From positions 1 to 50,592 of the forward strand of contig JBOHSB010000316.1 of the NCBI GenBank assembly GCA_050733015.1: DNA of 50,592 bases, given 5' to 3'. Below, one piece after another: positions 31,917-50,592 of this stretch (the stretch's first letter is position 1; each line of letters begins with the position of its first letter). The stretch comes from Gemmatimonadales bacterium (lineage in GTDB: Bacteria; Gemmatimonadota; Gemmatimonadetes; Gemmatimonadales; GWC2-71-9). The position numbers were made by a program, and so were the translations under genes. The notes under the pieces were generated by a model. That model saw only the letters and a program-made list of their open reading frames with translations, made no database searches and was not told the DNA's origin.

Positions 31917-32631
31917 CGAATACCGGATCATGCACCATCAGGAGCTGCGCCACTGGTGGTTCCGGGGGCGGCGGCTCATGCTGAGCGAGCTGCTTGTCCG
32001 CCAGGGGGGCAGTGGGCAACCTCGGATCCTGGATTTCGGGTGCGGCACGGGAGGAAACGTCGCGATGGAGGCCGCTGTTGGCCCAGTGGTGGGAATCGAG
32101 CCGGACGCCGGCGCGCTGGGGCTGGCCCGGCAGCGGGGTGGGGCGCTCTTCTGCCGCGCGGTGGGGACGGCACTTCCGTTCGCCGAGGGGACGTTCGACC
32201 TCGTGCTCGCAGCGGATGTGCTCGAGCACATCGCGGACGATGCGCTCGCCTCGAGCGAAATCCGCCGCGTGCTCCGAGTCGGCGGCAGCCTGGTGTTCAG
32301 CGTGCCGGCGCACCCCTGGCTGTTCGGCGCGCATGATGTCGCCCTGCGGCATCAGCGCCGCTACACCCGACGGACTATCCGTGCCGTTCTCGAGGGCGCC
32401 GGCCTTCGCGTGTCATGGCTTTCCTACTGGAACACGACGCTGTTTCCCGTCGCGGTCGCCGCTCGGCTGGCCAAGCAGTTCGGCCGTGCGGGCGTCCGCT
32501 CGGACGTACGCGACGTCCCGGCCCTCGTGAACCAGGCGTTGACCGGGCTGTTGGCGCTGGAGGCGCGGGCGCTCCGCCGCGTCCGGCTTCCCTGGGGCCT
32601 CTCCCTGATCGGCACTGCCACTCGGCGCTGA
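31906..32631 (+). CDS. Class I SAM-dependent methyltransferase
   Basis: Motif I ILDFGCGTGGNV. Its ATG overlaps the upstream gene by 11 nt. Confidence 0.85.
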   Translation: MRADEYRIMHHQELRHWWFRGRRLMLSELLVRQGGSGQPRILDFGCGTGGNVAMEAAVGPVVGIEPDAGALGLARQRGGALFCRAVGTALPFAEGTFDLVLAADVLEHIADDALASSEIRRVLRVGGSLVFSVPAHPWLFGAHDVALRHQRRYTRRTIRAVLEGAGLRVSWLSYWNTTLFPVAVAARLAKQFGRAGVRSDVRDVPALVNQALTGLLALEARALRRVRLPWGLSLIGTATRR

Positions 32632-34179: not shown

Positions 34180-34720
34180 AAATGGCCTCCGAGGGGTCGA
34201 ATAAGGTTCGGTCTTCTTACGGGGCTGGAAAGTCCCTTGCAGGAACCGGGACCGACCGATACAGTTGTCCACAATACCGAGCCAGGCAAGGGCCACTTGT
34301 TGGGCCGATAGAACCGTTCGGGCGAGGGTCCGACGGTTGCGGTGGTGCAACGCTCTCAGGCGTCGCCCCTGCAACAAATAACCCGACTCCGCCTTCGAAG
34401 GAATCTGGCCCGCATGGTCGGTCCGCCTGAGCTTGACCGGATGTAAACATCGGCATGGCAATGATTTGCAATACGACGCGCGGATGCCTCTCCCGCTCAC
34501 GTTGTCGGGCGCGAGCTCGAGTCCGTGGTCGAGTCTGGGCAGGAGATGCACGGGCATGCGTCTTGCCTGAATCGCTGCGCAATACCATTCACGTTTGCTC
34601 CAAATTCTTTGGCTCCTGAGGCGTTCGGCGGATCCTTCCAATCCGCCAATCCCGGGAGAGCGGCACCGCTGTCCGCTCTCCTTCCATGCACCACCAACAT
34701 GTACGTGGAGGAAGCACCGT
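34180..34720. promoter_or_regulatory. 541-nt divergent control region between the membrane-protein gene and flp
   Basis: The longest stretch inside the glycan/Tad loci without a credible ORF. Visibly less GC-rich. No promoter could be assigned with confidence. Confidence 0.4.
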
Positions 34721-34897
34721 ATGATGAAGCTCGCGCGGAACTTCTGGAACGACGAGTCAGGGCAGGGGCTGGCGGAGTATGCCCTGCTGCTCGGGCTTAT
34801 CGTCGTGGGTGTGGTGGTGATCATCAAGGGGATGGGCGGCCACATCAAGAACATCTTCGGCAAGGCGAACAACGAGCTGGCCTCGGCCGACAGCTGA
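34721..34897 (+). CDS. flp: Flp-family type IVb pilin
   Basis: 58 aa, MMKLARNFWNDESG/QGLAEYALLLGLIVVGVVVII. This shows the Flp G/XXXXEY processing motif plus a hydrophobic helix. GGAGG lies 9 nt upstream. Confidence 0.9.
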   Translation: MMKLARNFWNDESGQGLAEYALLLGLIVVGVVVIIKGMGGHIKNIFGKANNELASADS

Positions 34898-34946
34898 GCC
34901 CGGACACACCTACCGCTCCGCCGCGCGACCGTTCCGGGGCCGCAGG

Positions 34947-35471
34947 GTGATTCAAACTCTGGCGGATGTCGTGCTGGTAGGCGTTCTCTGCGCGGCGGCG
35001 TGGTGGGACATTCGGGATCGTCGGGTACCGAATCAGCTGACCGTGGCGGGACTCGTGGCTGCGCTGTTGCTGCGAGCCCCGCTCGGCGTTGATGCCGTAG
35101 TGACCGGATTGGCCGGGTTTGCCGTGGCCCTCGGAGTGGCGGTGCTGTTCCATGCCTTGGGCGCGGTCGGTGGGGGTGACGCCAAGCTTTTGGGCATGGT
35201 CGGTGCCTTCCTGGGTTTAGGTCCGCTCCCTGGGGCTTTGGCGTATATTGTGCTGCTCGGGGCGGGGATGGCCCTGGTCGCGATGGCGCGCCGGGGCCTC
35301 CTGCTTCTCCTCTTTTTCAACACGGTGGACCTGTTCCGGTCGAAGCGCCTGGTGGCGCGCTCGGGGAGCGTTCGGACCCTCGAGACCCCCGGGGCTCAGA
35401 CCATCCCGTATGCGGTGCCGATCGCGGCCGGGACCCTGATGTGGTGGTTCGGACAAGGAGTGAAGCTATGA
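34947..35471 (+). CDS. cpaA: Prepilin peptidase, A24 family (CpaA/TadV)
   Basis: Catalytic Asp contexts WWDIRDRRVPN and GGGDAKLLG. GTG start. Polytopic. Confidence 0.9.
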   Translation: MIQTLADVVLVGVLCAAAWWDIRDRRVPNQLTVAGLVAALLLRAPLGVDAVVTGLAGFAVALGVAVLFHALGAVGGGDAKLLGMVGAFLGLGPLPGALAYIVLLGAGMALVAMARRGLLLLLFFNTVDLFRSKRLVARSGSVRTLETPGAQTIPYAVPIAAGTLMWWFGQGVKL

Positions 35472-35914
35472 GCCTGATGGTGAGCCATCTCAGAGGGCGG
35501 AAGGGCCAGGCCCTCGCCGAGTTCGCGCTGATCCTGCCCGTGGTCTTCCTGCTGATCGCGGGGATCATCGAGTTCGGGCGAGCGTGGAACATCAAGCAGG
35601 CGGTGACCGACGCGGCCCGCGAGGGGGCGCGATACACGGTCGTCGTGGACACCACGAGCCAGGCCGGCATCAAGCACAGAATCAAGCAGCGTCTGGCGCT
35701 GGCGAGCATCGACACCACCAACCCCCCGACCAACATCACCATCAGCCCGATTGCGTCCCTGCATTGCGCCGGTGGCGTCGGAGCCGGGGCGGACATGACT
35801 GTGAACATCACGACGACATACCGGATGGGCTGGGTGGGGGCGATCCTGCACTGGACCGGCGGAAGTAGCACGATCACGATCTCCTCGAAGGCCACTATGC
35901 GGAACGAGTGCTGA
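35468..35914 (+). CDS. tadE: TadE-like pseudopilin
   Basis: GQALAEFALILPVVFLLIAGIIEFGR N-terminal TadE motif. ATGA overlap with cpaA. Confidence 0.8.
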   Translation: MSLMVSHLRGRKGQALAEFALILPVVFLLIAGIIEFGRAWNIKQAVTDAAREGARYTVVVDTTSQAGIKHRIKQRLALASIDTTNPPTNITISPIASLHCAGGVGAGADMTVNITTTYRMGWVGAILHWTGGSSTITISSKATMRNEC

Positions 35915-35919
35915 CCCCT

Positions 35920-36765
35920 ATGCGAAAACTGCGACCCTGGCTCATGCTCATGCTCGCCCTGGGCTCTGGGGGCCTGGCGGCGTATCTCGCGCTGCGATAC
36001 TTGCGCGAGCAGGCCACGCCGCTCCTGGCGTCGGGGCCCAGGAAGACCTCGATCGTCCTCGCGGCGCGGAGCCTGCCGATCGGCGCCGTCATCACCGACC
36101 AGGACGTGAAGGTCGTCGGGTGGCCAGGTGAAGCGGTGCCGAGCGGGTACATCGGCTCACTCAAGGACGCGATTGGCCGGGGCGTCATCACGCCCGTGTC
36201 GGAGAACGAGCCGCTGCTTGCGTCCAAGGTCTCGACCTTCGACCAGGGCGGTGGCCTTCCCATCATCATCAAGGACGGCATGCGCGCGATGAGCGTCCGG
36301 GTGGACGAAGTGATCGGCGTCGCCGGCTTCGTGCTCCCGGGTACCCATGTGGACGTGCTGCTCTCGCTCGACAAGGGCGATAACCGTCCCCAGTCGATCA
36401 CGCGGACTATACTGCAAAATGTGCAGGTGCTGGCCGCCGGCCAGCAGGTGCAGCGCGACAAGGAAGGGAAGCCCCAGACCGTCACGGTGATCACCCTGCT
36501 GGTGACGCTTGATGACGCCGAGCTTCTGGTGCTGGCGGGCAAGGAAGGCCGGATCCAACTGGCCCTACGGAACGGGCTCGACACGCTCGCCGTGGCCACT
36601 TCGGGGGCTAAGGCCGACCAGCTGGCGCCCGGGGCAGCTCCTGCGCGCGCCCCGCGCAACCCGTCGCCCAATCGGGTGGCTGCACCGGCCCCCCGCGTCA
36701 ACAACACCGTGATTGAAGGCTACCGTGGCGGCGAGCGCACCCTGACGACCTTCCAGAAGCCCTGA
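35920..36765 (+). CDS. cpaB: Flp pilus assembly protein CpaB/RcpC
   Basis: N-terminal anchor LMLMLALGSGGLAAYLAL, a SAF-like segment RSLPIGAVITDQDV and an RcpC-like beta domain. Confidence 0.85.
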   Translation: MRKLRPWLMLMLALGSGGLAAYLALRYLREQATPLLASGPRKTSIVLAARSLPIGAVITDQDVKVVGWPGEAVPSGYIGSLKDAIGRGVITPVSENEPLLASKVSTFDQGGGLPIIIKDGMRAMSVRVDEVIGVAGFVLPGTHVDVLLSLDKGDNRPQSITRTILQNVQVLAAGQQVQRDKEGKPQTVTVITLLVTLDDAELLVLAGKEGRIQLALRNGLDTLAVATSGAKADQLAPGAAPARAPRNPSPNRVAAPAPRVNNTVIEGYRGGERTLTTFQKP

Positions 36766-36784
36766 CCTTATCTCCGGGAGACCT

Positions 36785-38122
36785 GTGAGCATCCATCGCC
36801 GCGGTAGGGTTGTTCTCGTGTCACTTCGGTCCCTCGTCGTCGGATTGGTCGCTCTAGCCTCGGCCCGCAGCGCCGAGGCGCAGCGCGTGGTGCGGGCGCC
36901 CGAGCAGGTGGTGTCGGTCTCGAAGGGCGCCTCCGCGCTGCTGGTCAACCCCACCGCGATCCAGCGGTTCTCGATCGGCGACCCGGCGGTCGCCGAGGCG
37001 GTCGTGGTGTCGCCGACCGAGGTGCTGATCAACGGCAAGACCCTGGGCACGACTAGCCTGTTCCTGTGGGACAACTCGGGGAACATCAAGCTGTACTCCA
37101 TCGAGGTGACCGCAGACGCGGCCGGGCTGCAGCGCTACCTCAAGTCCGTGCTCGAGGGCGAGCAGGTGGACGTGACCGCGAGCGGCAACGTGGTGACGCT
37201 GTCGGGGCAGGTGCGGGACGCCAGCATGGCCAACCAGGCCGTCGAGATCGCCAAGGGCACGGGCGCCACCATCGTGGACAACCTGACCACGCCCGAGGCG
37301 GTGCAGGTTCAGCTCAGGGTCCGGTTCGCTGAAGTGAACAAGACCGCGGCCAAGCAGTTCCGCTCCCAGATCCAGACCCTCAATCCCCACCACTTGGACG
37401 ACAACGGGAATTGGGTGGGTTCCTCCAACACCGGCACCGCCGGTAGCTTCACCGACGGCGTGATCGACGTGGGTCTGTTCAACGCGAACGCCAGTATCGA
37501 GGCCTTGATCCTGGCGCTGCAGTCGAAGGGCGACCTCCGGAGCCTGGCAGAGCCAAACCTGATCACGTTGCCTGGCAAGGAAGCGAGCTTCCTGGCCGGC
37601 GGCGAATTCCCGTACCCGGCTGTGCAGGGCGGCGGGGGCAACAACGCCGTCTCGATCGTGTTCAAGGAGTTCGGCATCCGGCTCAAGTTCACGCCGGTCA
37701 TCACCCGGAACGGGAGCATCCGGCTCAAGGTGATGCCCGAGGTGTCGGCGCTCGACTTCTCGAATCCGCTCATCTTCGGCGGGTTCACGATTCCGAGCCT
37801 GCTCACCCGGCGGGCCGAGACCGAGGTCGAGATGAAGGACGGGCAGTACCTGGCGATCGCCGGCCTGATGAACAACACGCTGTCGGACAACATGACCAAG
37901 ATCCCGGTGCTCGGGGACATCCCTATCCTGGGTCAGTTCTTCCGTTCGAAAGACGCGCGCCAGAACCGCACGGAGCTGATGGTCCTGGTGGCGCCCAAGC
38001 TCATTCTGCCCAGCGATAGCCCGGCCCCGCTGCCGACCGGCGAGCCGACGGACTGGCGTTGGAGTGGCTCCATGAAGATGAAGGCTACGAGAGGAGACAC
38101 CGCGTCGGCGAAGGCAAAGTGA
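36785..38122 (+). CDS. cpaC: Outer-membrane secretin CpaC/RcpA
   Basis: Signal peptide. Secretin core LAEPNLITLPGKEASFLAGGEFPYP and IPVLGDIPILGQFFRS. GTG start after gggaga. Confidence 0.9.
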   Translation: MSIHRRGRVVLVSLRSLVVGLVALASARSAEAQRVVRAPEQVVSVSKGASALLVNPTAIQRFSIGDPAVAEAVVVSPTEVLINGKTLGTTSLFLWDNSGNIKLYSIEVTADAAGLQRYLKSVLEGEQVDVTASGNVVTLSGQVRDASMANQAVEIAKGTGATIVDNLTTPEAVQVQLRVRFAEVNKTAAKQFRSQIQTLNPHHLDDNGNWVGSSNTGTAGSFTDGVIDVGLFNANASIEALILALQSKGDLRSLAEPNLITLPGKEASFLAGGEFPYPAVQGGGGNNAVSIVFKEFGIRLKFTPVITRNGSIRLKVMPEVSALDFSNPLIFGGFTIPSLLTRRAETEVEMKDGQYLAIAGLMNNTLSDNMTKIPVLGDIPILGQFFRSKDARQNRTELMVLVAPKLILPSDSPAPLPTGEPTDWRWSGSMKMKATRGDTASAKAK

Positions 38123-38162
38123 CAGCTTGAAGTACCACTAGCATGCGGATCGGGGGAGACGT

Positions 38163-39392
38163 ATGCGTTTGCGGTGGCCACGGAACGAGCGGGGAGTTAC
38201 GCTCGTCCTCATGGTACTCGTCATGGCGCTCATTCTGGGCATGGCGGCGTTGACGATCGATTATGGCATGGTGAAGAGCGAGAAGGCGGAAGGACAGCGG
38301 GCGGTGGACGCGGCGGCGCTCGCGGGCGCGAGCTCGCTGATCGTGTCCGACCCGCTGTACGACAAGGCCAAGGGGGCGCGGGACACCGGTGGGAAATACG
38401 CGCAGCTCCACACGGTCGGGCTCAAGCCGGTGATTGCCGGCGAGGTCACGATCGTGCCGGACCTGGCGGCGAACACAGTCAAGGTGACCTGGCAGCGAGC
38501 CGGCATCCACACCTGGTTCGCCAACTCGTTCGGCGTCAACTCGATCGGACTTCAGGTGACGGCGACGGCCCACGTCGACGAGACCAACACCGCGACCTGT
38601 GTCAAGCCGGTGGCGGTGCCCGACATGTGGAACAACAGGCCCCACATCGTAAAGGGCAAGGAGACCGAGGACGTGAACGGCAATCACGCCCTCGACTACA
38701 ACGATAAGAACGGGAACAACCAGTGGAACGAGGGTGAGACCGAGCAGTGGACCTTCGATGCGGGCCTGGGCGATACCTACGCCCCGACGACGGATGGGTA
38801 CGGCACGACGGCCCGCGATCCGTACGGCAGCGGCAACGCGCACAAGGTCAAGGACTACGGCCGGCAGATCTTCCTGATGTCGCTGAGCTCGAAGGACGGC
38901 CCGGTTTCCTCGTTCTACTATGCTTGGGGCAAGACCAAGAGCGACAACAGCGCCAGCAAGCTGGCGGCGCGGATTACCAGTACGAGCTGTGAGACCGCCG
39001 AGCTCAACCACAACTACGAGGCTCTGAACGGCGGCAACACCGGTCCGGTGGACGACGCCTGGAACACGGTCATCAGCCGGGACGGCAGCGCTTACTGGAA
39101 CGACGCCACGAACAGCGTGGTGGGCTCCAACGCCGGGGCCAACTGGCTGAACAGCAGCGGCCGTGTCATTATCGTAGGGCTGTACAACCCGTCCCAGTAC
39201 GGCGGGTGCCCGAGTTGTAACACGATTCAGCTCAACAATCTGGCGAAGGTCTTCGTGGACAACCGCGCGTGCTCGGGGCACGGCAGTTGTAAGGAGCCGG
39301 TAACCGGCCGGTTCCTGGGATTCGTGAGCGGGGGCGGCTCGAGCGGTACGCCTTCGGGATCTCTGGTCAAGCGGATCGAGCTCATCAAGTAG
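38163..39392 (+). CDS. TadG-like pilus-associated protein, paralog 1
   Basis: N-terminal ERGVTLVLMVLVMALILGMAALTIDYG...QRAVDAAALAGAS (Tad/TadG N-terminal motif). Its C-terminus is shared with paralog 2. Confidence 0.7.
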   Translation: MRLRWPRNERGVTLVLMVLVMALILGMAALTIDYGMVKSEKAEGQRAVDAAALAGASSLIVSDPLYDKAKGARDTGGKYAQLHTVGLKPVIAGEVTIVPDLAANTVKVTWQRAGIHTWFANSFGVNSIGLQVTATAHVDETNTATCVKPVAVPDMWNNRPHIVKGKETEDVNGNHALDYNDKNGNNQWNEGETEQWTFDAGLGDTYAPTTDGYGTTARDPYGSGNAHKVKDYGRQIFLMSLSSKDGPVSSFYYAWGKTKSDNSASKLAARITSTSCETAELNHNYEALNGGNTGPVDDAWNTVISRDGSAYWNDATNSVVGSNAGANWLNSSGRVIIVGLYNPSQYGGCPSCNTIQLNNLAKVFVDNRACSGHGSCKEPVTGRFLGFVSGGGSSGTPSGSLVKRIELIK

Positions 39393-39439
39393 GCTTCTCG
39401 GTTCTGAGGGCTGCCACCTGGCGGCAGCAGGAGCTAGAA

Positions 39440-40630
39440 ATGCGGAAGACACTGCTGTGGGACAACGAGCGCGGTGCCACGCTGGTCTTAATGGCGATCA
39501 CGATCGTCCTCACGCTTTCGATGGCGGCGGTCGCGATCGACTACGGCAGGATGAAGTCGGCCCGAGCCGAGGCGCAGCGGGCGACCGATGCCGCCGCCTT
39601 GGCCGGCGCGAGCGCCTACCAGGAGGCCGGAACGCCCGCCGCGCAAAACACTGCGGCGGTGGCGCGGGTCCAGGCCTGGATCGTGAAGAATTCCGTCGCC
39701 GGCAAGCAGATCCTGATCGGACAGCTCGATTCGGTCAAACCCGACGCCGTGAAGCAGCGGGTGGACGTCTGGTTCACCAGCGCCCCGGTCAAGACCTGGT
39801 TTGCGAACACCTTCGGAACTACGAGCATGGCCCTCAAGTCGCATTCGGCGGCGGTCGCCGCGATCGGCGGGGTGATCACCAATTGCCTCAAGCCGTTCCT
39901 GCTTCCCGATATGTGGCAGGAAACCAGCGTCGGCGCGGGTCATCAAGACGCCAACTCGAATCGCATGATTGACGGCCCCGCCAACAACCCCGAGATATGG
40001 AACTATGAGCCGGGTGGGGCAGGCACCGATCGTTATCTCAAATACGACCCCAACGTGACCGACAACCCGCTCAATCCCCAGACGGGCTACGGCAGCAAGT
40101 ACAGAAACTCCGCGCTTTACCCCGATGACAAGGGTTTGCCCATGCTGATGAAGCCGATGCTCGGGAGCAACGAGAGCCGGCATGGCAACTGGTACTACCT
40201 GCTGGACGGTCCCCAGAAGAACGTGCGCTCGGACATCGAGAGCGGCTGCATCAACGCGTCGGTGGGTGAAACGCCCACCTTTGCCCCGGGTGGCAAGACC
40301 GGCCAGGTACGGAAAGGGGTACAGACCCTCTACGACCAGGATCCGACCGCCTTGTGGGACCAGACAAACCACAAGGTCGTCTCGTCCTACGGCGAGGCCA
40401 GCCCGCGGGTCATCATCGTCGGACTGTTCGATCCGTGGTACATCAAGGGCACGGCCAAGAATGACAAGCCGGACGCGGGCATGACGTTCACCAATTTCGC
40501 GAAGGTCTTCATCGATACCCGTCCGAATGGAAACGACGACATCAGCGTCAAGTTCGTCGGGTTCGTGCCAGGTGGCAACAACGGGGGGACGAGTGGTACC
40601 CTGCTCAAGGTCCTCCGGCTGGTCGAGTAG
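39440..40630 (+). CDS. TadG-like pilus-associated protein, paralog 2
   Basis: ERGATLVLMAITIVLTLSMAAVAIDYG...QRATDAAALAGAS. Shared motifs TWFAN.FG, C.KP...PDMW, RVIIVGL, FAKVF.D and GFV.GG. Confidence 0.7.
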   Translation: MRKTLLWDNERGATLVLMAITIVLTLSMAAVAIDYGRMKSARAEAQRATDAAALAGASAYQEAGTPAAQNTAAVARVQAWIVKNSVAGKQILIGQLDSVKPDAVKQRVDVWFTSAPVKTWFANTFGTTSMALKSHSAAVAAIGGVITNCLKPFLLPDMWQETSVGAGHQDANSNRMIDGPANNPEIWNYEPGGAGTDRYLKYDPNVTDNPLNPQTGYGSKYRNSALYPDDKGLPMLMKPMLGSNESRHGNWYYLLDGPQKNVRSDIESGCINASVGETPTFAPGGKTGQVRKGVQTLYDQDPTALWDQTNHKVVSSYGEASPRVIIVGLFDPWYIKGTAKNDKPDAGMTFTNFAKVFIDTRPNGNDDISVKFVGFVPGGNNGGTSGTLLKVLRLVE

Positions 40631-40670
40631 GAATGCATAGGAACCTAACAGCACTGAAGGATCGGGCGTC

Positions 40671-41924
40671 GTGAGCACGGCCGGAGCTCCGCGCGCCGCC
40701 CTGGTCAGCACGGATTCCCAGTTCCGCGAGCTGACCCGCCAGGTGCTAAGTGGGCCCGACCGCGCGTTGGCGGTCGAGCTCGACGTGGCCGTGCCATTCG
40801 ACGCGATGGGCGAGCATCAGTTGCAGGCCATCCGGTCCCAGGCGCCGGAAGTGATTCTGCTCGACTTGGAAGACGCGCCTGGCCTGGCGATCAAGTTCGC
40901 CCAGTTCCTGATCGACCAGAACCCGTCCCTGCTGTTCATCGCTGTTGGGCCGACCCTGACCAGTGATCAGCTCCTGGCGGCCATGCGGGCGGGCGTCACC
41001 GAGTATCTGCCCAAGCCGGTCGATCCGGACGATCTCAAGGGCGCCGCCTTTCGGGCCGCGCAGAAGCTCCGGAAGCCTTCCGGCGACCAGCAACGCGCGT
41101 CGGGAAAGATTCTGGCGTTCTTCAGCCCGAAAGGCGGTGGAGGCTCCACCACGCTCGCCACCAACCTGGCCATCGTGGTCCACCGCACGACGCACAAGCG
41201 GACGCTGCTGGTGGACCTCGATCTCGAAATGGGGGAGAGCGCCCTCGTGCTGGGGGTCCAGCCGAGGTTCAACTTCGTGGACTTCGTCGAGAATTTCCGC
41301 CGGATGGACGCCGGGCTGCTAGCCTCGTACATCGAGCGGCACGAATCGGGCGTGCACCTGCTCTCGGCCCCGTTCCAGCCCGAGAAGGCCGAGGCGGTCA
41401 CGGCGGACCAGATCCGGCGCATCCTGGCGTTCCTGCGCCAGCACTACGACTACATCATCGTGGACACCCCGCGCTCGTTCGCCCCGCCAATCCTGGCGGT
41501 GTTCGAGTCGGCGGACCAGGTGTACATCGTGAGCACGGTGGACCTCCCGTCGCTCCGGAACATCCAGCGGGGCTTCCCCCTGCTCAAGCGGGTGCTCACA
41601 GGTCCGCCGGACCAGGTGCGGCTGGTGCTCAACCGCTACGACCCGAGCGATTCGATCTCGCCGTCGGACGTCGAGCGCAGCCTAGGCCTCAAGGTGTTCT
41701 GGAAGGTGAGCAACGACTACGAGGCGGTGATGGGCTCGGTCAACTCGGGCAAGCCCATCGTGCTCAACGGTGGAAAGTCGAGCTACACCAACGACGTGAA
41801 GGGGCTCGCGACGGCGGTCACCGGGGTGAGCTCGAGTGCCAAGTCGCGGGGCCCGCTGGGACGGCTGTCCGATTCGGTGCGCGGAGCCCTGAAACGCAAC
41901 GGCAAGAAGTCGGAAGGAGCTTAA
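40671..41924 (+). CDS. cpaE: CpaE/TadZ: receiver-like N-terminal domain plus ParA/MinD-type ATPase
   Basis: Deviant Walker A FFSPKGGGGSTTLATNLA. GTG start. Confidence 0.85.
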   Translation: MSTAGAPRAALVSTDSQFRELTRQVLSGPDRALAVELDVAVPFDAMGEHQLQAIRSQAPEVILLDLEDAPGLAIKFAQFLIDQNPSLLFIAVGPTLTSDQLLAAMRAGVTEYLPKPVDPDDLKGAAFRAAQKLRKPSGDQQRASGKILAFFSPKGGGGSTTLATNLAIVVHRTTHKRTLLVDLDLEMGESALVLGVQPRFNFVDFVENFRRMDAGLLASYIERHESGVHLLSAPFQPEKAEAVTADQIRRILAFLRQHYDYIIVDTPRSFAPPILAVFESADQVYIVSTVDLPSLRNIQRGFPLLKRVLTGPPDQVRLVLNRYDPSDSISPSDVERSLGLKVFWKVSNDYEAVMGSVNSGKPIVLNGGKSSYTNDVKGLATAVTGVSSSAKSRGPLGRLSDSVRGALKRNGKKSEGA

Positions 41925-41927
41925 GGC

Positions 41928-43351
<1,424 letters not shown>

Positions 43352-43358
<7 letters not shown>

Positions 43359-44338
43359 GCATCCCGATGAGCCTGCTGCTGCCGGCGGCGGTCGCCTTCC
43401 TGGCGGTCGCGCTGGGGACGGTGTCGCTGGTCCTGATCATCGAGTGGATAGGGGAGCAGGGTCGCAAGCGCCGCATGGTGGGTGAGCTCCGCTCGATCGC
43501 CAACGAGGGGTTCGAGAGGGGTCCGGGTGGCCAGCTTTTGCGGTCGGCGATCCTCGAATCGCCCTGGCTCCGGCCCATCGCGGCCCGCATGCCGGCCCTG
43601 CAGGATGCCGAGCTGCTGCTTCAGCAGGCCCAGGTATCATGGAGCTTGCCGACCCTGCTGCTCATGTCGGTGGGCCTGGCCGTGGCGGCGGGGATCGCAG
43701 CCATAACGGCGACACGATCGTTCCTCGTCGCGCTGCCCGTCACCGTGATCGCCGCCACGATTCCGACGCTCTACGTTCGCTGGCGCCGAAATCGTCGTCT
43801 GAGCCAATTCGAGGAGATCCTGCCAGAGTCGATCGATCTCGTGGGCCGGGCGCTCCGCGCCGGACATCCCCTTTCGTCCGGCTTCAAGATGGCGGCTGAC
43901 GACGGGCCTGAGCCCGTAGCCAGCGAGTTTCGGCGCGTGTTCGAGGAGCAGCGCTTCGGCCTCCCGCTCCAGGACTCCCTGCTCGGCATGGCCGACCGGA
44001 TCAACCTGGTGGACGTGCGCATTCTGGTGACCGCCATCCTGATCCAGCGCGAGGTGGGCGGCAACCTGGCCGAGATCCTCGACAACCTCTCGGCGGTGAT
44101 CCGGGCGCGGTTCACCATCCGGCGCCAGATCAAGGTGTACACCGCGCAGGGCCGGATGACCGGCTACCTGCTGGCCCTGCTCCCGTTCATGCTGTTCGGC
44201 CTACTCTACACGATCAACCCGGAGTACATGTCGGTGCTGTTCACGGACCCGATCGGCAAAGTGCTGGTCGGGATCGCGCTCGTGATGCAGCTCGCCGGCT
44301 TCTTCTGGATCCGGAAGATCGTCAACATCGAGATCTGA
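43352..44338 (+). CDS. tadB: TadB (T2SS-F family platform protein)
   Basis: ATG at 43352 overlaps the cpaF stop by 7 nt. The layout is an N-terminal TM, a cytoplasmic domain and C-terminal TMs. The track ORF from 42896 is an out-of-context extension. Confidence 0.85.
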
Positions 44339-44345
44339 GGGTCCC

Positions 44346-45266
44346 ATGCTGCTGATCATCGCCCTCCTGACCGGCCTCGCGGTCATCTCGCTGACGATGC
44401 TGCTGTTACAGAGCAACGCCAACAATGCCACGCTGACGCAGCTCGACGAGCTGGCCAACATCGGGGGCGGACAGGACACCCTCACCCGTCGCCGGCGCCA
44501 GCAGCGGCTCGACCGGATGAAGTCGGTGCTGCAGGCGTTCGGCGAGCGGGTCGAGAGCGGGCGCAAAGACAACAGTGAGGTGCGCCAGTTCCTGCTGCAA
44601 GCCGGTTACGTGGACCCGAATGCGGTTTCCATCTACTGGGCCGCCCGCGTGATCCTTGCCATGGGGCTGGTGGCCGCCTCGGTGTTCATCCTGCCACTCG
44701 TCGGCCTGACCACGACGCAGGTGTTGATGGCGATCGTCTGGATGGGCGGCCTCGGGTGGGTCGGACCGGTGTTCTACGTCCGGAGCAGGCTCAAGGCGCG
44801 GCAGAAGGAGCTGCAGAAGGCCATGCCCGACATGCTCGACATGCTGGTGGTGTGCGTCGAGGCCGGCCTCGGGCTCAACCAGGCCCTCGTGCGAGTCGCC
44901 GACGAGATCGACCACGTCAGCCTGGTCATGAGCGAGCAGCTGGCGCTGGTGAACCTGGAGATGCGGGCCGGTACGCCGCGGGACGAGGCGCTCAAGAACC
45001 TGGCCGATCGGACCGGCCTGACGGACATGAAGTCGCTGGTCAGCATGCTGGTCCAGACCGACCGGTTCGGCACCTCGGTGGCCGACGCGCTCCGGGTCCA
45101 CTCGGACACGATGCGGACCAAGCGGCGCCAGCGGGCCGAGGAAGCCGCCGCCAAGACCACGATCAAGCTGGTGTTCCCGCTGGTGCTGTTCGTGTTCCCG
45201 GCCATGTTCGTCGTGGTGCTGGGGCCGTCGGTCATCGCGATCTACCGGATGTTCACGCACCTCTGA
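44346..45266 (+). CDS. tadC: TadC (T2SS-F family platform protein)
   Basis: Same architecture as tadB. MLDMLVVCVEAGLGLNQAL motif. Confidence 0.85.
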   Translation: MLLIIALLTGLAVISLTMLLLQSNANNATLTQLDELANIGGGQDTLTRRRRQQRLDRMKSVLQAFGERVESGRKDNSEVRQFLLQAGYVDPNAVSIYWAARVILAMGLVAASVFILPLVGLTTTQVLMAIVWMGGLGWVGPVFYVRSRLKARQKELQKAMPDMLDMLVVCVEAGLGLNQALVRVADEIDHVSLVMSEQLALVNLEMRAGTPRDEALKNLADRTGLTDMKSLVSMLVQTDRFGTSVADALRVHSDTMRTKRRQRAEEAAAKTTIKLVFPLVLFVFPAMFVVVLGPSVIAIYRMFTHL

Positions 45267-45273
45267 CCCGCGA

Positions 45274-45678
45274 GTGAAGCGGCTCAGGGTCGTGAACGCG
45301 GCCCGCGGCGCGGTGCTGGGAACGCAGGTCGCGCTGGCGGACCGCTGGCTGGCCCGGCTCCGCGGCCTGCTCGGCCGGCCCGAGCCGGCACCCGGTGAAG
45401 GCCTGCTGCTCGCGCCCTGCGGCTCGGTGCACATGCTGGGGATGCGCTACCCGATCGACGTGGCCCTGCTCGACGGCGAGCGGCGGGTCCTGTCGGTCCA
45501 CCCCGGCCTCAGGCCCGGATGGCACATGGCCGCGGCCCGCGGCGCCCGCTACGCGATGGAGCTACCCGCCGGCACCCTGGCCACCACTGGCACGGTCCCG
45601 GGCGACCTACTCGATTGGCAGGAGACGAGCGCCGGCCCCGACGGCCGGCGCGGCTCTCATCAGGAGGCAGTGTCATGA
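45274..45678 (+). CDS. DUF192 domain protein
   Basis: RLRGLLGR...GEGLLLAPCGSVHMLGMRYPIDVALLD pattern typical of DUF192/COG1430. GTG start 7 nt after the tadC stop. No signal peptide. Confidence 0.75.
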   Translation: MKRLRVVNAARGAVLGTQVALADRWLARLRGLLGRPEPAPGEGLLLAPCGSVHMLGMRYPIDVALLDGERRVLSVHPGLRPGWHMAAARGARYAMELPAGTLATTGTVPGDLLDWQETSAGPDGRRGSHQEAVS

Positions 45679-47018
45679 GCGCGATGCCAGCCATGTCCCC
45701 GAACGACGCCCCGCGCTCCGAGCGCCGCGGCACGCTGCCCCGGAGCCCCGACCGGCTGGCGGACACCGGCCTCACCGGCGACTTCGTGCGCGACCTGCTG
45801 CTCAAGACGCTCTACGTGCAGGGCACCCGCACCGGCCAGCAGCTCTCCGAGTTCGTGGCGCTGCCGTTCGGCCTCATCGACGACGAGCTGCTCACGCTGC
45901 AGCAGCGCCGCTTCATCGAGGTGTGCGGCACCCACGGGCCCAACCGCGGCAGCTACATCTTCGACCTGGTGGGCGACGGGCGCGCCCGGGCCAAGGACGC
46001 CTTCGAGGCCAGCCAGTACGTGGGCCCCGCGCCCGTACCGCTGGCGCAGTACCGCGAGCGGATGGCCATCCAGTCGATTCAGCACGCCCACGTCACCCAG
46101 GACATCCTGCGCGAGGGCCTGAGCCACCTGGTGCTCGAGGACGGCCTGTTCGACATGCTCGGGCCCGCGGTCAACTCGTCCAAGTCCATCTTCCTGTACG
46201 GGCACCCGGGCAACGGCAAGACCGCCATCGCGGAGGCCATCTCGCAGATGCTCGGCGGCACCATCTTCGTGCCCTACGCGGTCGAGGTGGAGGGCCAGAT
46301 CATGACCGTCTTCGATCCGGTGCACCACGAACGGATCGAGGATGGTCCCGCGGCCCCCGGCACCGAGGGCATCTGGCTGCGCAACGAGTCGTATGACCGA
46401 CGCTATGCCCACTGCCGCCGGCCGATCGTCGTCACCGGTGGTGAGCTCACGCTCAACGAACTGGATCTGCAATACGACCCGTTCACCAAGCTGTACCAGG
46501 CCCCGTTCCAGGTGAAGGCCAACGGCGGCGTGCTCATCGTGGACGACTTCGGCCGCCAGCGGGTGCCGCCACGCGACCTGCTCAACCGCTGGATCGTGCC
46601 GCTCGAGAAGCGCATGGACTACCTCACCATGCACACCGGCGGCAAGTTCCCGATCCCGTTCGACTGCCTGCTGATCTTCGCCACCAACCTCGATCCGGCG
46701 GAGCTGGTCGAGGAGGCGTTCCTGCGCCGGATCCACTACAAGATCCCGGTCAACGACCCGACGCGGAAGGAATACGCCCTCATCTTCCAGCGGGTGTGCG
46801 ATGCCGAGGGGATCGGGTTCACGCCCGAGGCCCTGCTGCAGATCGACCGCGACTGGTACAGGGCCATGCGCATCCCGCCGCGGGCCTGCCATCCCCGCGA
46901 CATCCTGGCGCACGTGACCGACATCGCCAAGTACCAGAACGTGCCGCCGCGGCTCTCGACCGACCTGGTGGACCGCGCCTGCCGCTCCTACTTCCTGAGC
47001 AACGAGCAGGATCGCTGA
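45675..47018 (+). CDS. AAA+ ATPase with a roughly 190-aa N-terminal domain
   Basis: ATG at 45675 (caggagg upstream) overlaps the DUF192 stop as ATGA. Walker A FLYGHPGNGKTAIAEAI. Walker B VLIVDDFG. Arg-finger-like EEAFLRRIHYKIPV. Confidence 0.85.
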   Translation: MSAMPAMSPNDAPRSERRGTLPRSPDRLADTGLTGDFVRDLLLKTLYVQGTRTGQQLSEFVALPFGLIDDELLTLQQRRFIEVCGTHGPNRGSYIFDLVGDGRARAKDAFEASQYVGPAPVPLAQYRERMAIQSIQHAHVTQDILREGLSHLVLEDGLFDMLGPAVNSSKSIFLYGHPGNGKTAIAEAISQMLGGTIFVPYAVEVEGQIMTVFDPVHHERIEDGPAAPGTEGIWLRNESYDRRYAHCRRPIVVTGGELTLNELDLQYDPFTKLYQAPFQVKANGGVLIVDDFGRQRVPPRDLLNRWIVPLEKRMDYLTMHTGGKFPIPFDCLLIFATNLDPAELVEEAFLRRIHYKIPVNDPTRKEYALIFQRVCDAEGIGFTPEALLQIDRDWYRAMRIPPRACHPRDILAHVTDIAKYQNVPPRLSTDLVDRACRSYFLSNEQDR

Positions 47019-47022
47019 GCCG

Positions 47023-47736
47023 ATGACCGACCAACCAAGGACGGACGCGCCAGCCCACGGTGGGGACCAGCTGCTCCGCCACATGGCGGAGCGCATCCAG
47101 GGCCTGGAGCGGGAGACCCGCCGGCTGCGCCGGCTGTGGATGGCGACGGTCTTCAGCCTCGCCGTGCTGCTCGGGCTCGGCGCCGCGCTGGTCATCGTAT
47201 CGGCCAAGCACGGGTTTCCCGGCACCGTGGCCGACGTGATCGAGTCCCGCCAGTTCCTCATCCGCGACAAGTCCGGCGCGGTGCGCGGGGCGTGGGGCGC
47301 GGCGGATGACGGCTCGCTCCGGCTGTCACTGCAGGCGTCCGGGAGCCGGGCCGGCGTGAGCCTGACCGCGCTCAAGGGCGGGGCCTCGGGGCTGACCTTC
47401 ACCGACAGCGTCGGCAAGTCGCGCGGCGTGCTGGCCCTGCTGCCGGATGAGACCATGGCGCTGACCTTCGGCGACCGGAACGGGACCACCCGGAGCGCCC
47501 TCGGCCTCAACCCGGAGGGCTCCGCCACGCTGGTCTTCGCCGACCGCACCGGGGCCACCCGCGCCGGCCTCGGCGTCGACAGCCGGGGGGTGGGGACCTT
47601 CACCGTGATCGATCGTCCGGGCGCGGCCCGGACCCCCGAGCCCGAGGCCGACTCCTCGGCGGACCAGGCCGACAGCACGAGCTCGCTGCCCGCTGTCGTG
47701 CCCCAAGCTCCCCAGAGGAAGGGCACCAAGAAGTAG
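47023..47736 (+). CDS. Bitopic membrane protein with six 23-residue repeats
   Basis: Coiled-coil-like N-terminus and TM helix LWMATVFSLAVLLGLGAALVIV. Repeats start at residues 78, 101, 124, 147, 170 and 193 (h.h.D..G..R..LG....G...). Low-complexity basic tail. Confidence 0.7.
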   Translation: MTDQPRTDAPAHGGDQLLRHMAERIQGLERETRRLRRLWMATVFSLAVLLGLGAALVIVSAKHGFPGTVADVIESRQFLIRDKSGAVRGAWGAADDGSLRLSLQASGSRAGVSLTALKGGASGLTFTDSVGKSRGVLALLPDETMALTFGDRNGTTRSALGLNPEGSATLVFADRTGATRAGLGVDSRGVGTFTVIDRPGAARTPEPEADSSADQADSTSSLPAVVPQAPQRKGTKK

Positions 47737-47739
47737 ATC

Positions 47740-48738
47740 ATGCGGATTCTGGTCACCGGCGGCGCCGGCTTCATCGGCTCGCATCTCTCCGATCGCCTGC
47801 TCGCCCAGGGGCACCACGTGGTGTGCCTCGACAACTTCTTCACCGGGCGCCGGGCCAACCTCGAGCACATGCTCGACCATCCCGGCTTCGAGGTGCTGCA
47901 CCACGACGTCTGCGAGCCGCAGTTCACCGAGGTGAACCAGATCTACAACCTGGCCTGTCCCGCCTCGCCGGTGCACTATCAGTACAATCCCGTCAAGACC
48001 GTCAAGTCGAACGTCATGGGCACCCTCAACATGCTGGTGCTGGCCAAGCGGGTCGGCGCCCGCATCCTGCAGGCGTCCACCTCCGAGGTGTACGGCGACC
48101 CCACGGTGCACCCCCAGCCCGAGACCTACTGGGGCAACGTGAACCCGATCGGCCCGCGGGCCTGCTACGACGAGGGGAAGCGCGTGGCCGAGACGCTGAT
48201 GTCCGACTACCACCGGGAAGACGGGGTGGACATCCGCATCGCCCGCATCTTCAACACCTACGGGCCGCGGATGGCGGAGAACGACGGGCGGGTGGTGTCC
48301 AACTTCATCGTGCAGGCGCTGCGCGGGCAGGAGCTGACGCTGTACGGCACCGGCGAGCAGACCCGGTCGTTCTGCTACGTGGAAGACCTGGTGGACGGCC
48401 TGATCCGGCTCATGAACGTCGCGGGCGAGGGCCGGCACGAGCCGGTCAACCTGGGGAACCCGGTCGAGTTCACCATCCGCGAGCTGGCCGAGGAAGTGGT
48501 GAAGGTGGTGGGCGGCGAGGCGCGGGTCACCTACATGCCCCTGCCGCAGGACGACCCGACCCAGCGGCAGCCGGACATCACGCGCGCCCGTGCCTGGCTC
48601 GGCTGGGAGCCGCGGGTCCAGCTGGCGGACGGGCTGGTGCGGACGGTCGAGTATTTCCGGTCGCGGCTCGCGCGGCGGAATCGCGCGGCCATCTCCAAGG
48701 TCGACGACGCCTCGTCATCTCCGGGGTTGCCGGGCTAG
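47740..48738 (+). CDS. uxs: UDP-glucuronate decarboxylase (UDP-xylose synthase)
   Basis: [27 protein letters not shown]. Catalytic CYDEGKR. Full-length SDR-e layout. It starts 3 nt after the previous stop. Confidence 0.93.
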
Positions 48739-48760
48739 GGTCGGGGTGCGCGGCTCCAGC

Positions 48761-48862
48761 GGGGCGACGACACTCCCTCCGGGCTCCACAGTGCGGTTCG
48801 TTCCTACTGGCACCACCCCATGCGGAGCCGCACTGACGCGCCTGCGGGAGCGCCGTCGCCCC
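48761..48862 (+). terminator. Nested inverted repeat after uxs (possible terminator or structured RNA)
   Basis: Outer pairing GGGGCGACG (48761-48769) with CGTCGCCCC (48854-48862). Inner pairing CAGTGCGG (48789-48796) with CCGCACTG (48828-48835). No U-tract. Confidence 0.25.
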
Positions 48863-49129
48863 GCCTGGGCCCGACGCTCTCGAACTGGGGGTCAGCAGGC
48901 GCGGCTGGGTTGGGGCGCTGGGGCGCGCAGCGGAGACGGCTCAAGCGCGCGAGCCCCAGCTTCCCGGCCGCGCAACCGTCACCCCCCCAACGCTTTAGCC
49001 AGTCGCTACCCGCAGCCCCGATGCCAGCCGCCCGCCCCCCGCGACGCGCGTCACAGCCTTTTGCCCCGATCGCTCTACATTTGGTCCCTGCACGCTCCCC
49101 GCCTGGCCGACCGTGAACGAGGAGAGCCC

Positions 49130-50592
49130 ATGTCGCGTCGTGTGGTGGTCGTTCGGTGGTCCACGTTCCTGCTCGCCGGCTCGCTGGCGCTCGCGCCGAG
49201 CGGCTGTGCCCGCAATCCGGTGACCGGCAAGAACGAGTTGTCGCTGGTGTCGGAGTCGCAGGAGATCGAGATGGGCAAGCAGTCGGCACAACAGGTGGAG
49301 CAGACCATCGGCTACTACAACGACCCGGGGGTGCAGGCGTACGTCTCCGGAATCGGCCTGAAGATGGCCAAGGCCTCGGAGCGGCCCAACCTGCCGTGGG
49401 AGTTTCACGTGGTGAACGACGCGTCGGTCAACGCCTTCGCGCTGCCCGGCGGCTTCATCTACGTGACCCGGGGCCTCATGACGGCGATCAACGACGAAGC
49501 CGAGCTGGCGACCGTCGTCGGGCACGAGATCGGGCACGTGACCAACCGGCACTCGGTGCAGCAGATCAGCAAGGCCCAGGTGGCCCAGCTCGGGCTGGGA
49601 ATCGGCAGCATCCTGTCGCCCAGCGTGGCTCGCGCGGCCGGCGTCGCCAGCCAGGGACTCCAGGTCCTGTTCCTCAAGTACAGCCGCGACGCCGAGAACC
49701 AGGCCGACCTGGCGGGCTTCCGGTACGCGCTCAACCAGAACTACGACGTGCGCGAGATGACGAACGTGTTCCAGACGCTCGACCGGGTGAGCCAGCAGGC
49801 CGGCGGCGGGAAGCTGCCGGAGTGGCTCGAGACCCACCCCGATCCCGGCACCCGGATCCAGAACACCCAGCAACGGCTCGATACGCTCCACAAGGACCTG
49901 AGCAACGCGATCCGCAACCGCGACCAGTACCTCCAGCACGTTCAGAACATGACGTACGGCGAGGACCCGAGGCAGGGGTTCTTCGAGGGCACCGCGTTCT
50001 ACCACCCCGATCTCCGCTTCCAGGTCACCTTCCCGCAGGGCTGGAAGACGCAGAACGGCGCGGACGCAGTGGTCGCGGCGAGCCCGAACCAGGACGCGGT
50101 CATGCAGCTGAGCCTGGCGGGGCAGACGCCGCCGCAGCAGGCGGCCCAGCAGTTCCTGTCGCAGCAGGGCATGCAGGCGGGCAACACCTCGACCGCGAGC
50201 GTGAACGGTCTCCCGGCGGCCTCGGGCTACTTCGAGGCGCAGACGGAGCAGGGTGCGGTGCGGGGGTTGGTGACGTTCCTGTCGTACAACGGAAACACCT
50301 ACGGCATCCTGGGCTACACCCCGGCCGACAAGCTCACGCAGTACGACCAGGTGTTCCGCCAGGCGATCGGGAGCTTCGGCCCGCTGCGCAACCAGGCCGC
50401 GCTCAGCGTGCAGCCGGCCAAGGTGGAGCTCATGAAGCTGCAGCGCGAGATGACGCTGGAGCAGTTCAACCAGCAGTACCCGTCGTCGATTCCGATCGCG
50501 GAGCTCGCGATCATCAACGAGCTCGAGTCGCCCAGCACGGTGATTCCGGTGGGGCGGACGGTGAAGCGCGTGGTGGGGGGGCGGACTACGGG
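49130..50592 (+). CDS. M48-family zinc metalloprotease, exported; 3'-partial at the window edge
   Basis: Hand translation from the ATG at 49130 (gaggagag upstream): MSRRVVVVRWSTFLLAGSLALAPSGC...VVGHEIGHVTNRH...ENQADLAGF. The frame stays open to 50592. The track lists only the antisense ORF 48995..50005. Confidence 0.9.
   Translation, partial: MSRRVVVVRWSTFLLAGSLALAPSGCARNPVTGKNELSLVSESQEIEMGKQSAQQVEQTIGYYNDPGVQAYVSGIGLKMAKASERPNLPWEFHVVNDASVNAFALPGGFIYVTRGLMTAINDEAELATVVGHEIGHVTNRHSVQQISKAQVAQLGLGIGSILSPSVARAAGVASQGLQVLFLKYSRDAENQADLAGFRYALNQNYDVREMTNVFQTLDRVSQQAGGGKLPEWLETHPDPGTRIQNTQQRLDTLHKDLSNAIRNRDQYLQHVQNMTYGEDPRQGFFEGTAFYHPDLRFQVTFPQGWKTQNGADAVVAASPNQDAVMQLSLAGQTPPQQAAQQFLSQQGMQAGNTSTASVNGLPAASGYFEAQTEQGAVRGLVTFLSYNGNTYGILGYTPADKLTQYDQVFRQAIGSFGPLRNQAALSVQPAKVELMKLQREMTLEQFNQQYPSSIPIAELAIINELESPSTVIPVGRTVKRVVGGRTT

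Follow-up and report, generated by a model that had tools for sequence, protein, structure and literature searches.

Organization of the operon tail

We analyzed a 50,592-nucleotide (nt) stretch of a contig from a Gemmatimonadales bacterium (JBOHSB010000316.1, assembly GCA_050733015.1; hereafter, the window), in which a tad/flp operon for a Tad/Flp-type adhesion pilus continues beyond tadC into three additional genes on the same strand. These genes encode, in order, a small DUF192 protein, an AAA+ ATPase with an N-terminal winged helix (wH-AAA+), and a bitopic membrane protein built from repeats (Rep), and are followed by a gene for a UXS-like NAD-dependent epimerase/dehydratase (Table 1). The best explanation of this arrangement is that the trio and the UXS-like gene close a 15-gene tad/flp operon of this Gemmatimonadota genome as its translationally coupled 3' tail, and the wH-AAA+ protein is probably an overlooked accessory part of the Tad/Flp adhesion pilus.

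The tadC stop codon, TGA at 45264-45266, is separated by 7 nt from the GTG start codon of the DUF192 gene at 45274; the DUF192 and AAA+ genes share a 4-nt ATGA overlap (45675-45678); and 4 nt lie between the AAA+ stop codon (47016-47018) and the ATG start codon of the Rep gene (47023). These junctions, given in a preliminary description of the locus, were confirmed by open reading frame (ORF) listing and by direct reading. A perfect AGGAGG motif located 7 nt ahead of the ATG at 45675 supports a start of the AAA+ protein at this codon rather than at that of a longer ORF beginning at 45519. The preliminary description treated the operon end as a three-gene set, and although these genes are real, it left out the UXS-like gene, which begins 3 nt past the Rep stop codon and is probably carried on the same transcript as the last gene of the transcription unit. 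A gap of 391 nt separates the UXS-like gene from the next gene, encoding an M48 peptidase. Simple scans detected no terminator-like sites on the plus strand after 35307, the operon tail included, and no sigma-70-like promoter in 34000-50592.

The wH-AAA+ ATPase and its operon partners

The wH-AAA+ protein shows the canonical succession of elements by which the AAA+ superfamily is recognized (Walker A, Walker B, sensor 1, arginine finger and C-terminal helical lid), and all its catalytic motifs are intact. In an alignment of 37 sequences, which was used to assess conservation and to build a structural model, conservation of the Walker A residues G176, G179, G181 and K182 is 90% or higher; a smaller, 12-sequence alignment also has N180 and T183 invariant. 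The Walker B motif of the family carries an invariant DD pair (290-291) replacing the usual DE. The segment EEAFLRRIHYKIPV, in which R351 is invariant and R352 is at least 90% conserved, had been labeled the second region of homology, but is better described as belonging to the sensor-1 and arginine-finger region.

The AlphaFold2 (AF2) model, based on the 37 homologues (predicted local distance difference test (pLDDT) 89.7), bears out the suggestion of an N-terminal winged helix: this domain consists of three helices and a beta wing, is preceded by a conserved P..TGL motif and is followed by a conserved linker. The beta-rich insert between strand beta2 and Walker B contains six invariant residues, D214, H218, D241, R243, R249 and P250. 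Past Walker B, the model comprises a helix with the sequence LLNRWIVPLE, a predicted pre-sensor-1 beta hairpin (314-328) between helix 299-312 and the sensor-1 strand, and a C-terminal four-helix lid (364-439), the third helix of which opens with R408. There are no transmembrane (TM) segments.

The protein had been characterized as a classical AAA+ ATPase; it is AAA+ but falls outside the classical clade. According to published AAA+ classifications, the classical AAA clade (FtsH/p97/katanin type) has neither a pre-sensor-1 beta hairpin nor an insert in the helix-2 region, so that the predicted hairpin together with the insert before Walker B excludes this assignment; the match to PF00004 (AAA) is partial, scoring 20.8 bits against a cut-off of 21.2 over residues 172-199 only. 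Across Pfam, NCBIfam, PADLOC and PHROGs, matches were either below threshold or limited to the P-loop, and no family covering the protein was found; in database annotations, family members appear just as 'ATP-binding protein' or 'AAA family ATPase'. The top structural matches to the AAA+ model (Foldseek) are an uncharacterized Pyrococcus furiosus protein, Q8U0N8 (PDB 8p49), and the LonB ATPase domain, followed by RuvB, BchI, FleQ/FlrC and NorQ, with best-match E-values from 4.5e-12 to 1e-7 and sequence identities of 12-18%; in a profile search against the PDB, AAA+ matches were confined to the P-loop and sensor-1 region.

Several specific assignments were considered and rejected. The MoxR/bpMoxR match reached 24.1 bits, against a gathering score of 27, over 90 residues. 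LonB protease is excluded by the lack of a TM segment and by the end of the protein directly after the lid, and the NCBIfam lon_rel model scored 15.9 bits against a cut-off of 516. GspA/ExeA is likewise excluded, there being no TM segment and no match to peptidoglycan-binding or AAA_22 domains. The models for the Tad motor TadA/CpaF (T2SSE) and for TadZ/CpaE (ParA/MinD; AAA_31/CbiA) did not match the 447-amino-acid (aa) protein, and both matched their own genes upstream.

Matches around the P-loop to the PADLOC IetA and NCBIfam IteA models, along with a restriction-modification-like pair downstream of the AAA+ gene in one Chloroflexia locus, could point to a defense or mobile-element cassette inserted behind the tad operon. 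However, the IetA/IteA matches span just ~30-60 residues around Walker A and fall far under the cut-offs (30.4 bits against 510), leading us to reject this assignment of the ATPase; moreover, PHROGs matches stop at the P-loop, the GC content is unremarkable, and the gene order is stable across many genomes. We regard such a cassette as highly improbable.

The winged helix also raises the possibility of a transcription regulator of tad or other genes, in which this domain would bind DNA and the ATPase would serve as the sensor or switch. In addition to the fold itself, the structural matches to the AAA+ domains of FleQ/FlrC, a weak match to Sigma54_activat (22.6 bits over residues 281-359, with no stretch passing alone), and the occurrence of stand-alone AAA+ genes in varied contexts would be compatible with this function. 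Some members of the family carry N-terminal FHA (P0184, P0200) or HDOD (P0174) signaling domains, fusions that suggest that the family is an output of signaling pathways; one source labels an FHA-fused member 'DNA-binding PadR family transcriptional regulator', and in the FHA-fused locus L096, the AAA+ gene lies between topA and the RNase R gene, away from tad genes. However, the winged-helix domain is acidic (mean net charge -1.2), and its putative recognition helix, which reads IDDELLTLQQ in the window protein, lacks conserved basic residues. Both properties speak against sequence-specific binding to DNA, and the domain more probably serves for docking than for reading DNA. The GAFTGA loop and C-terminal helix-turn-helix typical of enhancer-binding proteins are missing, so that membership in this class was rejected, and a translationally coupled gene located midway along a structural operon or at its end, as the AAA+ gene is, more typically encodes a component of the machine. 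Overall, we consider a regulatory function of this kind unlikely.

The DUF192 protein is, as first described, cytoplasmic. It matches PF02643 well above the cut-off (E-value 5.7e-15, 55.7 bits against 27), with residues 18-115 aligned to profile positions 2-96 of 96, and a domain that starts at residue 18 leaves no room for a signal peptide; no hydrophobic or TM segment was found in the protein. It is related to, but not a member of, the archaeal-type DUF192 equivalog PRK03760 of NCBIfam (52.8 bits against a cut-off of 146), and the solved DUF192 structures 3pjy and 3m7a are weak matches. The motif RxRGxxxR...PxxxxH...DV, with R28, R30, G31, R35, P48, H53, D62, V63 and E96 invariant, is common to the DUF192 proteins encoded at tad loci in the window, Pelobacter and Streptomyces. 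On Streptomyces plasmids, a leaderless DUF192 gene closes the tad locus without an AAA+ gene; conversely, DUF192 is absent from the AAA+-bearing proteobacterial loci. In the Firmicutes Bulleidia extructa and Helcococcus ovis, a DUF192 gene likewise lies in or close to the 3'-terminal position of the tad operon (PMC12786226, 2025). Thus, leaderless DUF192 is an independently recurring accessory at the 3' end of tad operons. In a Chloroflexia-type locus (L100, 9666-10004), the position of the window DUF192 gene is occupied by a gene for a 112-aa DUF6812 protein that overlaps the AAA+ start by 4 nt; we considered DUF6812 as a DUF192 relative and rejected this relationship for want of sequence similarity.

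Rep, correctly described at the outset as a bitopic protein with 23-residue repeats, has an Arg-rich cytoplasmic N-terminus ahead of a single TM segment, six repeat units of the form x-L-x-F-x-D-x-x-G-x-x-R-x-x-L-G, and a low-complexity C-terminal tail. The periodicity is pronounced, with a self-comparison score of 73 at offset 23 versus -6 at the next best offset. A single-sequence model predicts 11 beta strands arranged in a ladder of hairpins (pLDDT 68.6 overall, 80-93 in the last repeats), a fold that resembles the single-layer beta sheets of the OspA type only at the fold level, and Rhs and MORN less closely. At an E-value of 0.01 or below, Rep matched none of the Pfam or NCBIfam families, MORN and YD/Rhs included. 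Among 5.8 billion sequences, 244 Rep homologues were detected, and every taxon-named one comes from Gemmatimonadales, so Rep is a lineage-specific addition confined to this order. The two homologues that we looked up (56-58% identity) reside in the same DUF192-AAA+-Rep order with 4-nt overlaps. An apparent AAA+-Rep pair outside Gemmatimonadota was rejected, the neighbor in Anaerolineae being a glycerophosphodiester phosphodiesterase wrongly grouped with Rep by ORF clustering. Downstream of the AAA+ gene of Rhizobium etli plasmid p42e (L085, 13316-13879) is a gene for a 187-aa protein with a short cytoplasmic N-terminus, one TM segment and a coiled coil, without a Pfam family; its bitopic architecture is like that of Rep, but the sequence differs, and a coiled coil replaces the beta repeats.

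Table 1. Genes and features of the operon tail and of the upstream tad/flp operon in the window
Feature	Position	Strand	Basis
DUF192 gene, leaderless (cytoplasmic), 134 aa	45274-45678	+	PF02643
AGGAGG Shine-Dalgarno of AAA+ gene, within 3' end of DUF192 gene	45662-45667	+	sequence reading
wH-AAA+ ATPase gene, 447 aa	45675-47018	+	homologues, AF2 model
N-terminal winged-helix domain, residues 28-112	45756-46010	+	AF2 secondary structure, conservation
Conserved linker YVGPAPVPL after winged helix	46017-46043	+	conservation
Walker A GHPGNGKT, residues 176-183	46200-46223	+	sequence, conservation
Beta-rich insert, ~85 residues, between strand beta2 and Walker B	46275-46529	+	model, invariant columns
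Walker B LIVDDFG, residues 287-293	46533-46553	+	sequence, conservation, model
Sensor-1 ATN (N338) and arginine-finger region EEAFLRRIHYKIPV (residues 346-359)	46680-46751	+	sequence, conservation
Rep gene, bitopic membrane protein, 237 aa	47023-47736	+	sequence, model
Rep TM segment, residues 39-61	47137-47205	+	sequence
Rep six 23-residue beta-hairpin repeats, residues 76-208	47248-47646	+	self-comparison, model
UXS-like NAD-dependent epimerase/dehydratase (decarboxylase) gene	47740-48738	+	Pfam GDP_Man_Dehyd/Epimerase, E-values 1e-52 to 1e-54
Upstream tad/flp operon	34715-45266	+	Pfam matches; same strand, short gaps or overlaps
flp	34715-34897	+	upstream tad/flp operon
A24 prepilin peptidase	34947-35471	+	Pfam
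TadE	35441-35914	+	Pfam
RcpC/CpaB	35908-36765	+	Pfam
Secretin RcpA	36785-38122	+	Pfam
Two TadG-like genes	38163-39392 and 39440-40630	+	Pfam
CpaE/TadZ	40671-41924	+	Pfam
CpaF	41928-43358	+	Pfam
TadB	43370-44338	+	Pfam
TadC	44346-45266	+	Pfam

Distribution of the genes and linkage to Tad loci

The wH-AAA+ family is large, with more than 8000 homologues in a word-indexed search, 831 clusters at 50% identity (E-value 1e-30 or below), and matches in at least 532 species genomes in a scan with the 12-sequence AAA+ alignment. To relate it to Tad loci, we mapped the Tad proteins of the window by tblastn onto 84 fetched loci, 7 plasmid loci and the window itself, which together make 92 loci with an AAA+ match. 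In Gemmatimonadota, 14 of 17 loci are tad-linked, the other three being short contigs, with the arrangement tadC-DUF192-AAA+-Rep and with DUF192 and Rep each present in 15 of the 17. All 7 loci from Acidobacteriota, mostly Vicinamibacteria, are linked as well, the AAA+ gene standing after tadC and DUF192 coming before or after it in 5. So are all 7 sampled loci, of 76 matching records, from proteobacterial plasmids and chromids, where the position varies, and all 3 from Chloroflexia, where a lone CpaF-like gene directly follows the AAA+ gene. The tblastn screen detected no tad linkage in the 58 loci from other lineages.

The gene order tadC-DUF192-AAA+-Rep, overlapping stop and start codons included, persists among relatives in Gemmatimonadota whose AAA+ identity is as low as about 50%. 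This conservation of the trio together with the tad operon makes a functional link to the pilus, as initially suspected, well founded; however, only in Gemmatimonadota do the three genes stay together as a unit, and they are not one universal module. Elsewhere, the AAA+ gene appears in the tad loci of several phyla, Rep does not, and many AAA+ genes are unlinked. AAA+ and DUF192 are independent recurrent Tad accessories.

Outside Gemmatimonadota and Acidobacteriota, the AAA+ gene assumes a variety of positions. R. etli p42e and Sinorhizobium fredii pNGR234b have the order tadB-tadC-AAA+; in Pseudorhodobacter, the AAA+ gene lies 2 kb after tadC, and in Salipiger, it is convergent to tadC. Burkholderia, Paraburkholderia and Photobacterium share the order flp-prepilin peptidase-AAA+-cpaB-secretin. 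In the complete genome of Pelobacter propionicus (L097, CP000482), the genes cpaE-cpaF-tadB-tadC-DUF192-PMT_2-x-x-GT2-AAA+-x-PAP2 are all located on one strand. A widely seen Chloroflexia-type contig carries DUF6812-AAA+-cpaF-like, and the pair of the AAA+ gene and a lone CpaF-like gene was found in 4 Chloroflexia loci overall. Weaker linkage was observed in two Myxococcaceae loci, with a T2SSE gene 3.5-4.5 kb downstream, and in one Nitrospirota locus, with a divergent MshE-type T2SSE gene one gene away and within ~4.5 kb; by our own estimate, roughly 1% of randomly chosen genes would have a T2SSE gene within 10 kb. In one of the Myxococcaceae loci (L043, 17980-20063), an IS21-type element (a Mu-transposase/rve ORF and IstB) lies beyond the T2SSE gene at a distance of ~1 kb, separated from it by one ORF. 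Taken together, the AAA+ family is associated with Tad loci and with genes for CpaF-type ATPases in many lineages, and this association is solid.

Genes of sugar metabolism recur at these loci, suggesting an explanation in which the module serves glycosylation of the pilus (for example, of the Flp pilin) or an envelope polysaccharide made with it, the AAA+ and DUF192 proteins being accessory to a polyprenol-linked GT-C pathway. In the window, the UXS-like gene directly follows Rep, and a large polytopic membrane ORF without a Pfam match (32416-34269, minus strand), which may encode a GT-C-type glycosyltransferase, is divergent from flp; its product is 24-28% identical to those of two adjacent paralogues by the Vicinamibacteria tad locus L020 (12077-14953). 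Elsewhere, the Pelobacter locus contains PMT_2, GT2 and PAP2 genes, a Burkholderia pyrrocinia plasmid (L088) has GtrA-GT2-GT87-GT87 beside the flp genes, rmlACDB follows the AAA+ gene in the Nitrospirota locus L064, and a GT2 gene is divergent from the AAA+ gene in the Anaerolineae-type locus L047. This recurrence hints at pilin or envelope glycosylation tied to these loci. However, no sugar gene is listed flanking the AAA+ gene in Rhizobium, Salipiger, Paraburkholderia or Chloroflexia, nor in Sinorhizobium, which was probed with Tad queries only; a UXS-like gene after Rep is present in loci L002, L007, L009 and L095 but missing from several Gemmatimonadota loci that keep the trio (L001, L003 and L094); and the AAA+ and DUF192 sequences give no hint of sugar chemistry. 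As an account of the module itself, glycosylation appears improbable to us.

Several additional features of the window and its relatives were recorded. The M48 peptidase gene (49130-50590) encodes a protein with a lipoprotein-type N-terminus (LAPSGC); an M48 gene is also found downstream of the trio in loci L001-L003 and L095, and in L095, another TadG-like gene comes next. The CpaE/TadZ homologue of the window has a receiver-like N-terminal region (Response_reg, 25.7 bits, below the cut-off of 30.2), a combination also recorded for the relatives in L003 and L095. In the close relative L001 (6000-9800), the cpaF-tadB-tadC region is fragmented, with CpaF split and TadB and TadC shortened, which could be due to assembly errors or pseudogenization. 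Only one sequencing run, from a cave metagenome, contains the window sequence near-completely (0.98 of the words sampled); about one-fifth of the window is found in the other listed runs, most of which are from soil. All 22 listed runs are DNA.

Proposed role and comparison with known systems

As an explanation of these observations as a whole, we favor, by a modest preference, a dedicated cytoplasmic accessory ATPase of Tad-type (type IV filament) machines that acts on the CpaF/TadBC platform. The wH-AAA+ protein would assemble as an AAA+ oligomer, with the non-DNA-binding winged helix docking on the cytoplasmic face of the Tad platform, that is, on the CpaF motor, TadB/TadC and CpaE. The lone AAA+-cpaF pairs of Chloroflexia suggest the CpaF motor as the most likely partner. 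The DD Walker B, which is also found in DnaA, suggests slow, switch-like ATP turnover, and such turnover might load, remodel or gate the CpaF motor. The ATPase would then control pilus assembly or disassembly rather than power it, and we favor a loader, gate or remodeler over a second engine. In Gemmatimonadota and Acidobacteriota, the immediate partner of the AAA+ protein could be DUF192, acting as a small co-factor in the cytoplasm. Rep might be a lineage-specific membrane partner, either a tether or a sensor, whose short cytoplasmic N-terminus could anchor the AAA+ protein to the membrane while its periplasmic beta-hairpin sheet could touch the envelope or the pilus.

Several observations weigh against such an accessory role. 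No tad or T2SSE gene was found within ~10 kb of the AAA+ gene in the 58 unlinked loci among the 92 sampled, which come from Anaerolineae, most Myxococcota/delta, Armatimonadota and one Nitrospirota. This applies to 47 Chloroflexota loci other than the linked ones, most of them from Anaerolineae, and to additional loci from Verrucomicrobiae, Methylacidiphilales, Ca. Nitronereus and the FHA-fused form. Neighbors in these loci are mixed (GDPD, GT2, aminotransferases, GNAT, Fic, ClpX and metK/ahcY); with this large unlinked share in Anaerolineae, Verrucomicrobiota and others, the family is not obligately pilus-linked by gene position. The AAA+ family tree follows phyla in a rough neighbor-joining analysis, which reduces the linked loci to perhaps 6-8 independent events, not dozens. 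Glycosylation genes also recur near the AAA+ gene or tad loci, and it is a guess on which partner the protein docks, how many subunits it assembles and in which direction it acts.

The same tree, following organismal phylogeny, and the lack of tad linkage in most sampled loci outside four or five phyla would fit inherited synteny without shared function, with the AAA+ protein being a housekeeping ATPase whose gene happens to lie beside tad genes in some phyla. However, depending on the lineage, the AAA+ gene follows tadC, faces it convergently, stands between the prepilin peptidase gene and cpaB, or forms a pair with a lone cpaF, and these differing positions are hard to explain by inherited synteny alone; furthermore, many of the linked loci reside on plasmids or chromids. 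We give this explanation little weight relative to an accessory role in the pilus machine.

Under a bolder version of the accessory ATPase proposal, which we advance only tentatively and rate as less probable, wH-AAA+ would be a widespread, unrecognized third Tad ATPase acting directly on the CpaF motor, for example as a loader, gate or disassembly factor, with leaderless DUF192 as its adaptor in some phyla. If this version is true, a third ATPase would help explain how a single-motor machine changes from extension to retraction and back. Many bacteria, rhizobia and Burkholderia among them, use Tad/Flp pili for adhesion, biofilm formation and host colonization, and the component list of these pili is usually taken as settled. 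A conserved extra ATPase is a candidate for a missing regulatory or assembly step. Carriers of the AAA+ gene include Rhizobium, Sinorhizobium, Burkholderia, Photobacterium, Pelobacter and several poorly studied soil phyla, and among the cultured ones, rhizobia, Burkholderia and Pelobacter are genetically tractable. The recurrent leaderless DUF192 at tad loci also provides a first functional context for a domain with solved structures.

In the window, the complete canonical Tad/Flp set (Flp, TadV, RcpCAB, TadZ/CpaE, TadA/CpaF, TadB, TadC and TadD-G) lies directly upstream of the trio, which continues the same operon while, as recognized from the start, belonging to no canonical Tad family. To our knowledge, the Tad loci of Aggregatibacter, Caulobacter and Pseudomonas have no such AAA+ ATPase. 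The literature that we searched contained no paper on this AAA+ family in tad loci, the sole relevant one (PMC12786226) being concerned with DUF192. The DUF192 proteins described there for B. extructa and H. ovis resemble that of the window in being small, leaderless and encoded by a gene that ends the tad operon or lies near its 3' end; in those loci, a coiled-coil protein comes next and no AAA+ gene is described, whereas the DUF192 gene of the window is coupled to that of the ATPase.

With regard to the ATPase itself, LonB shares with the window protein a large insertion between Walker A and Walker B, but the window protein has neither a protease domain nor a TM insert. The nearest analogies in function come from secretion systems. 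EccA (type VII) and ClpV (type VI) are cytoplasmic AAA+ proteins with an N-terminal protein-interaction domain, encoded within the respective loci, which remodel components rather than drive transport. They belong to other AAA+ clades, are unrelated to the window protein in sequence, and ClpV has two rings, in contrast to the single AAA+ module, unique beta insert and DD Walker B of the window protein. In type II secretion, GspA/GspB (ExeA/ExeB) pairs an accessory P-loop ATPase with a bitopic membrane partner, and together they aid the assembly of a machine of the type IV filament class. ExeA is membrane-anchored and has a periplasmic peptidoglycan-binding domain, whereas the window ATPase has neither a TM segment nor such a domain, and the two systems have no sequence relationship; they are alike in that an ATPase and a bitopic partner are encoded together with the machine.

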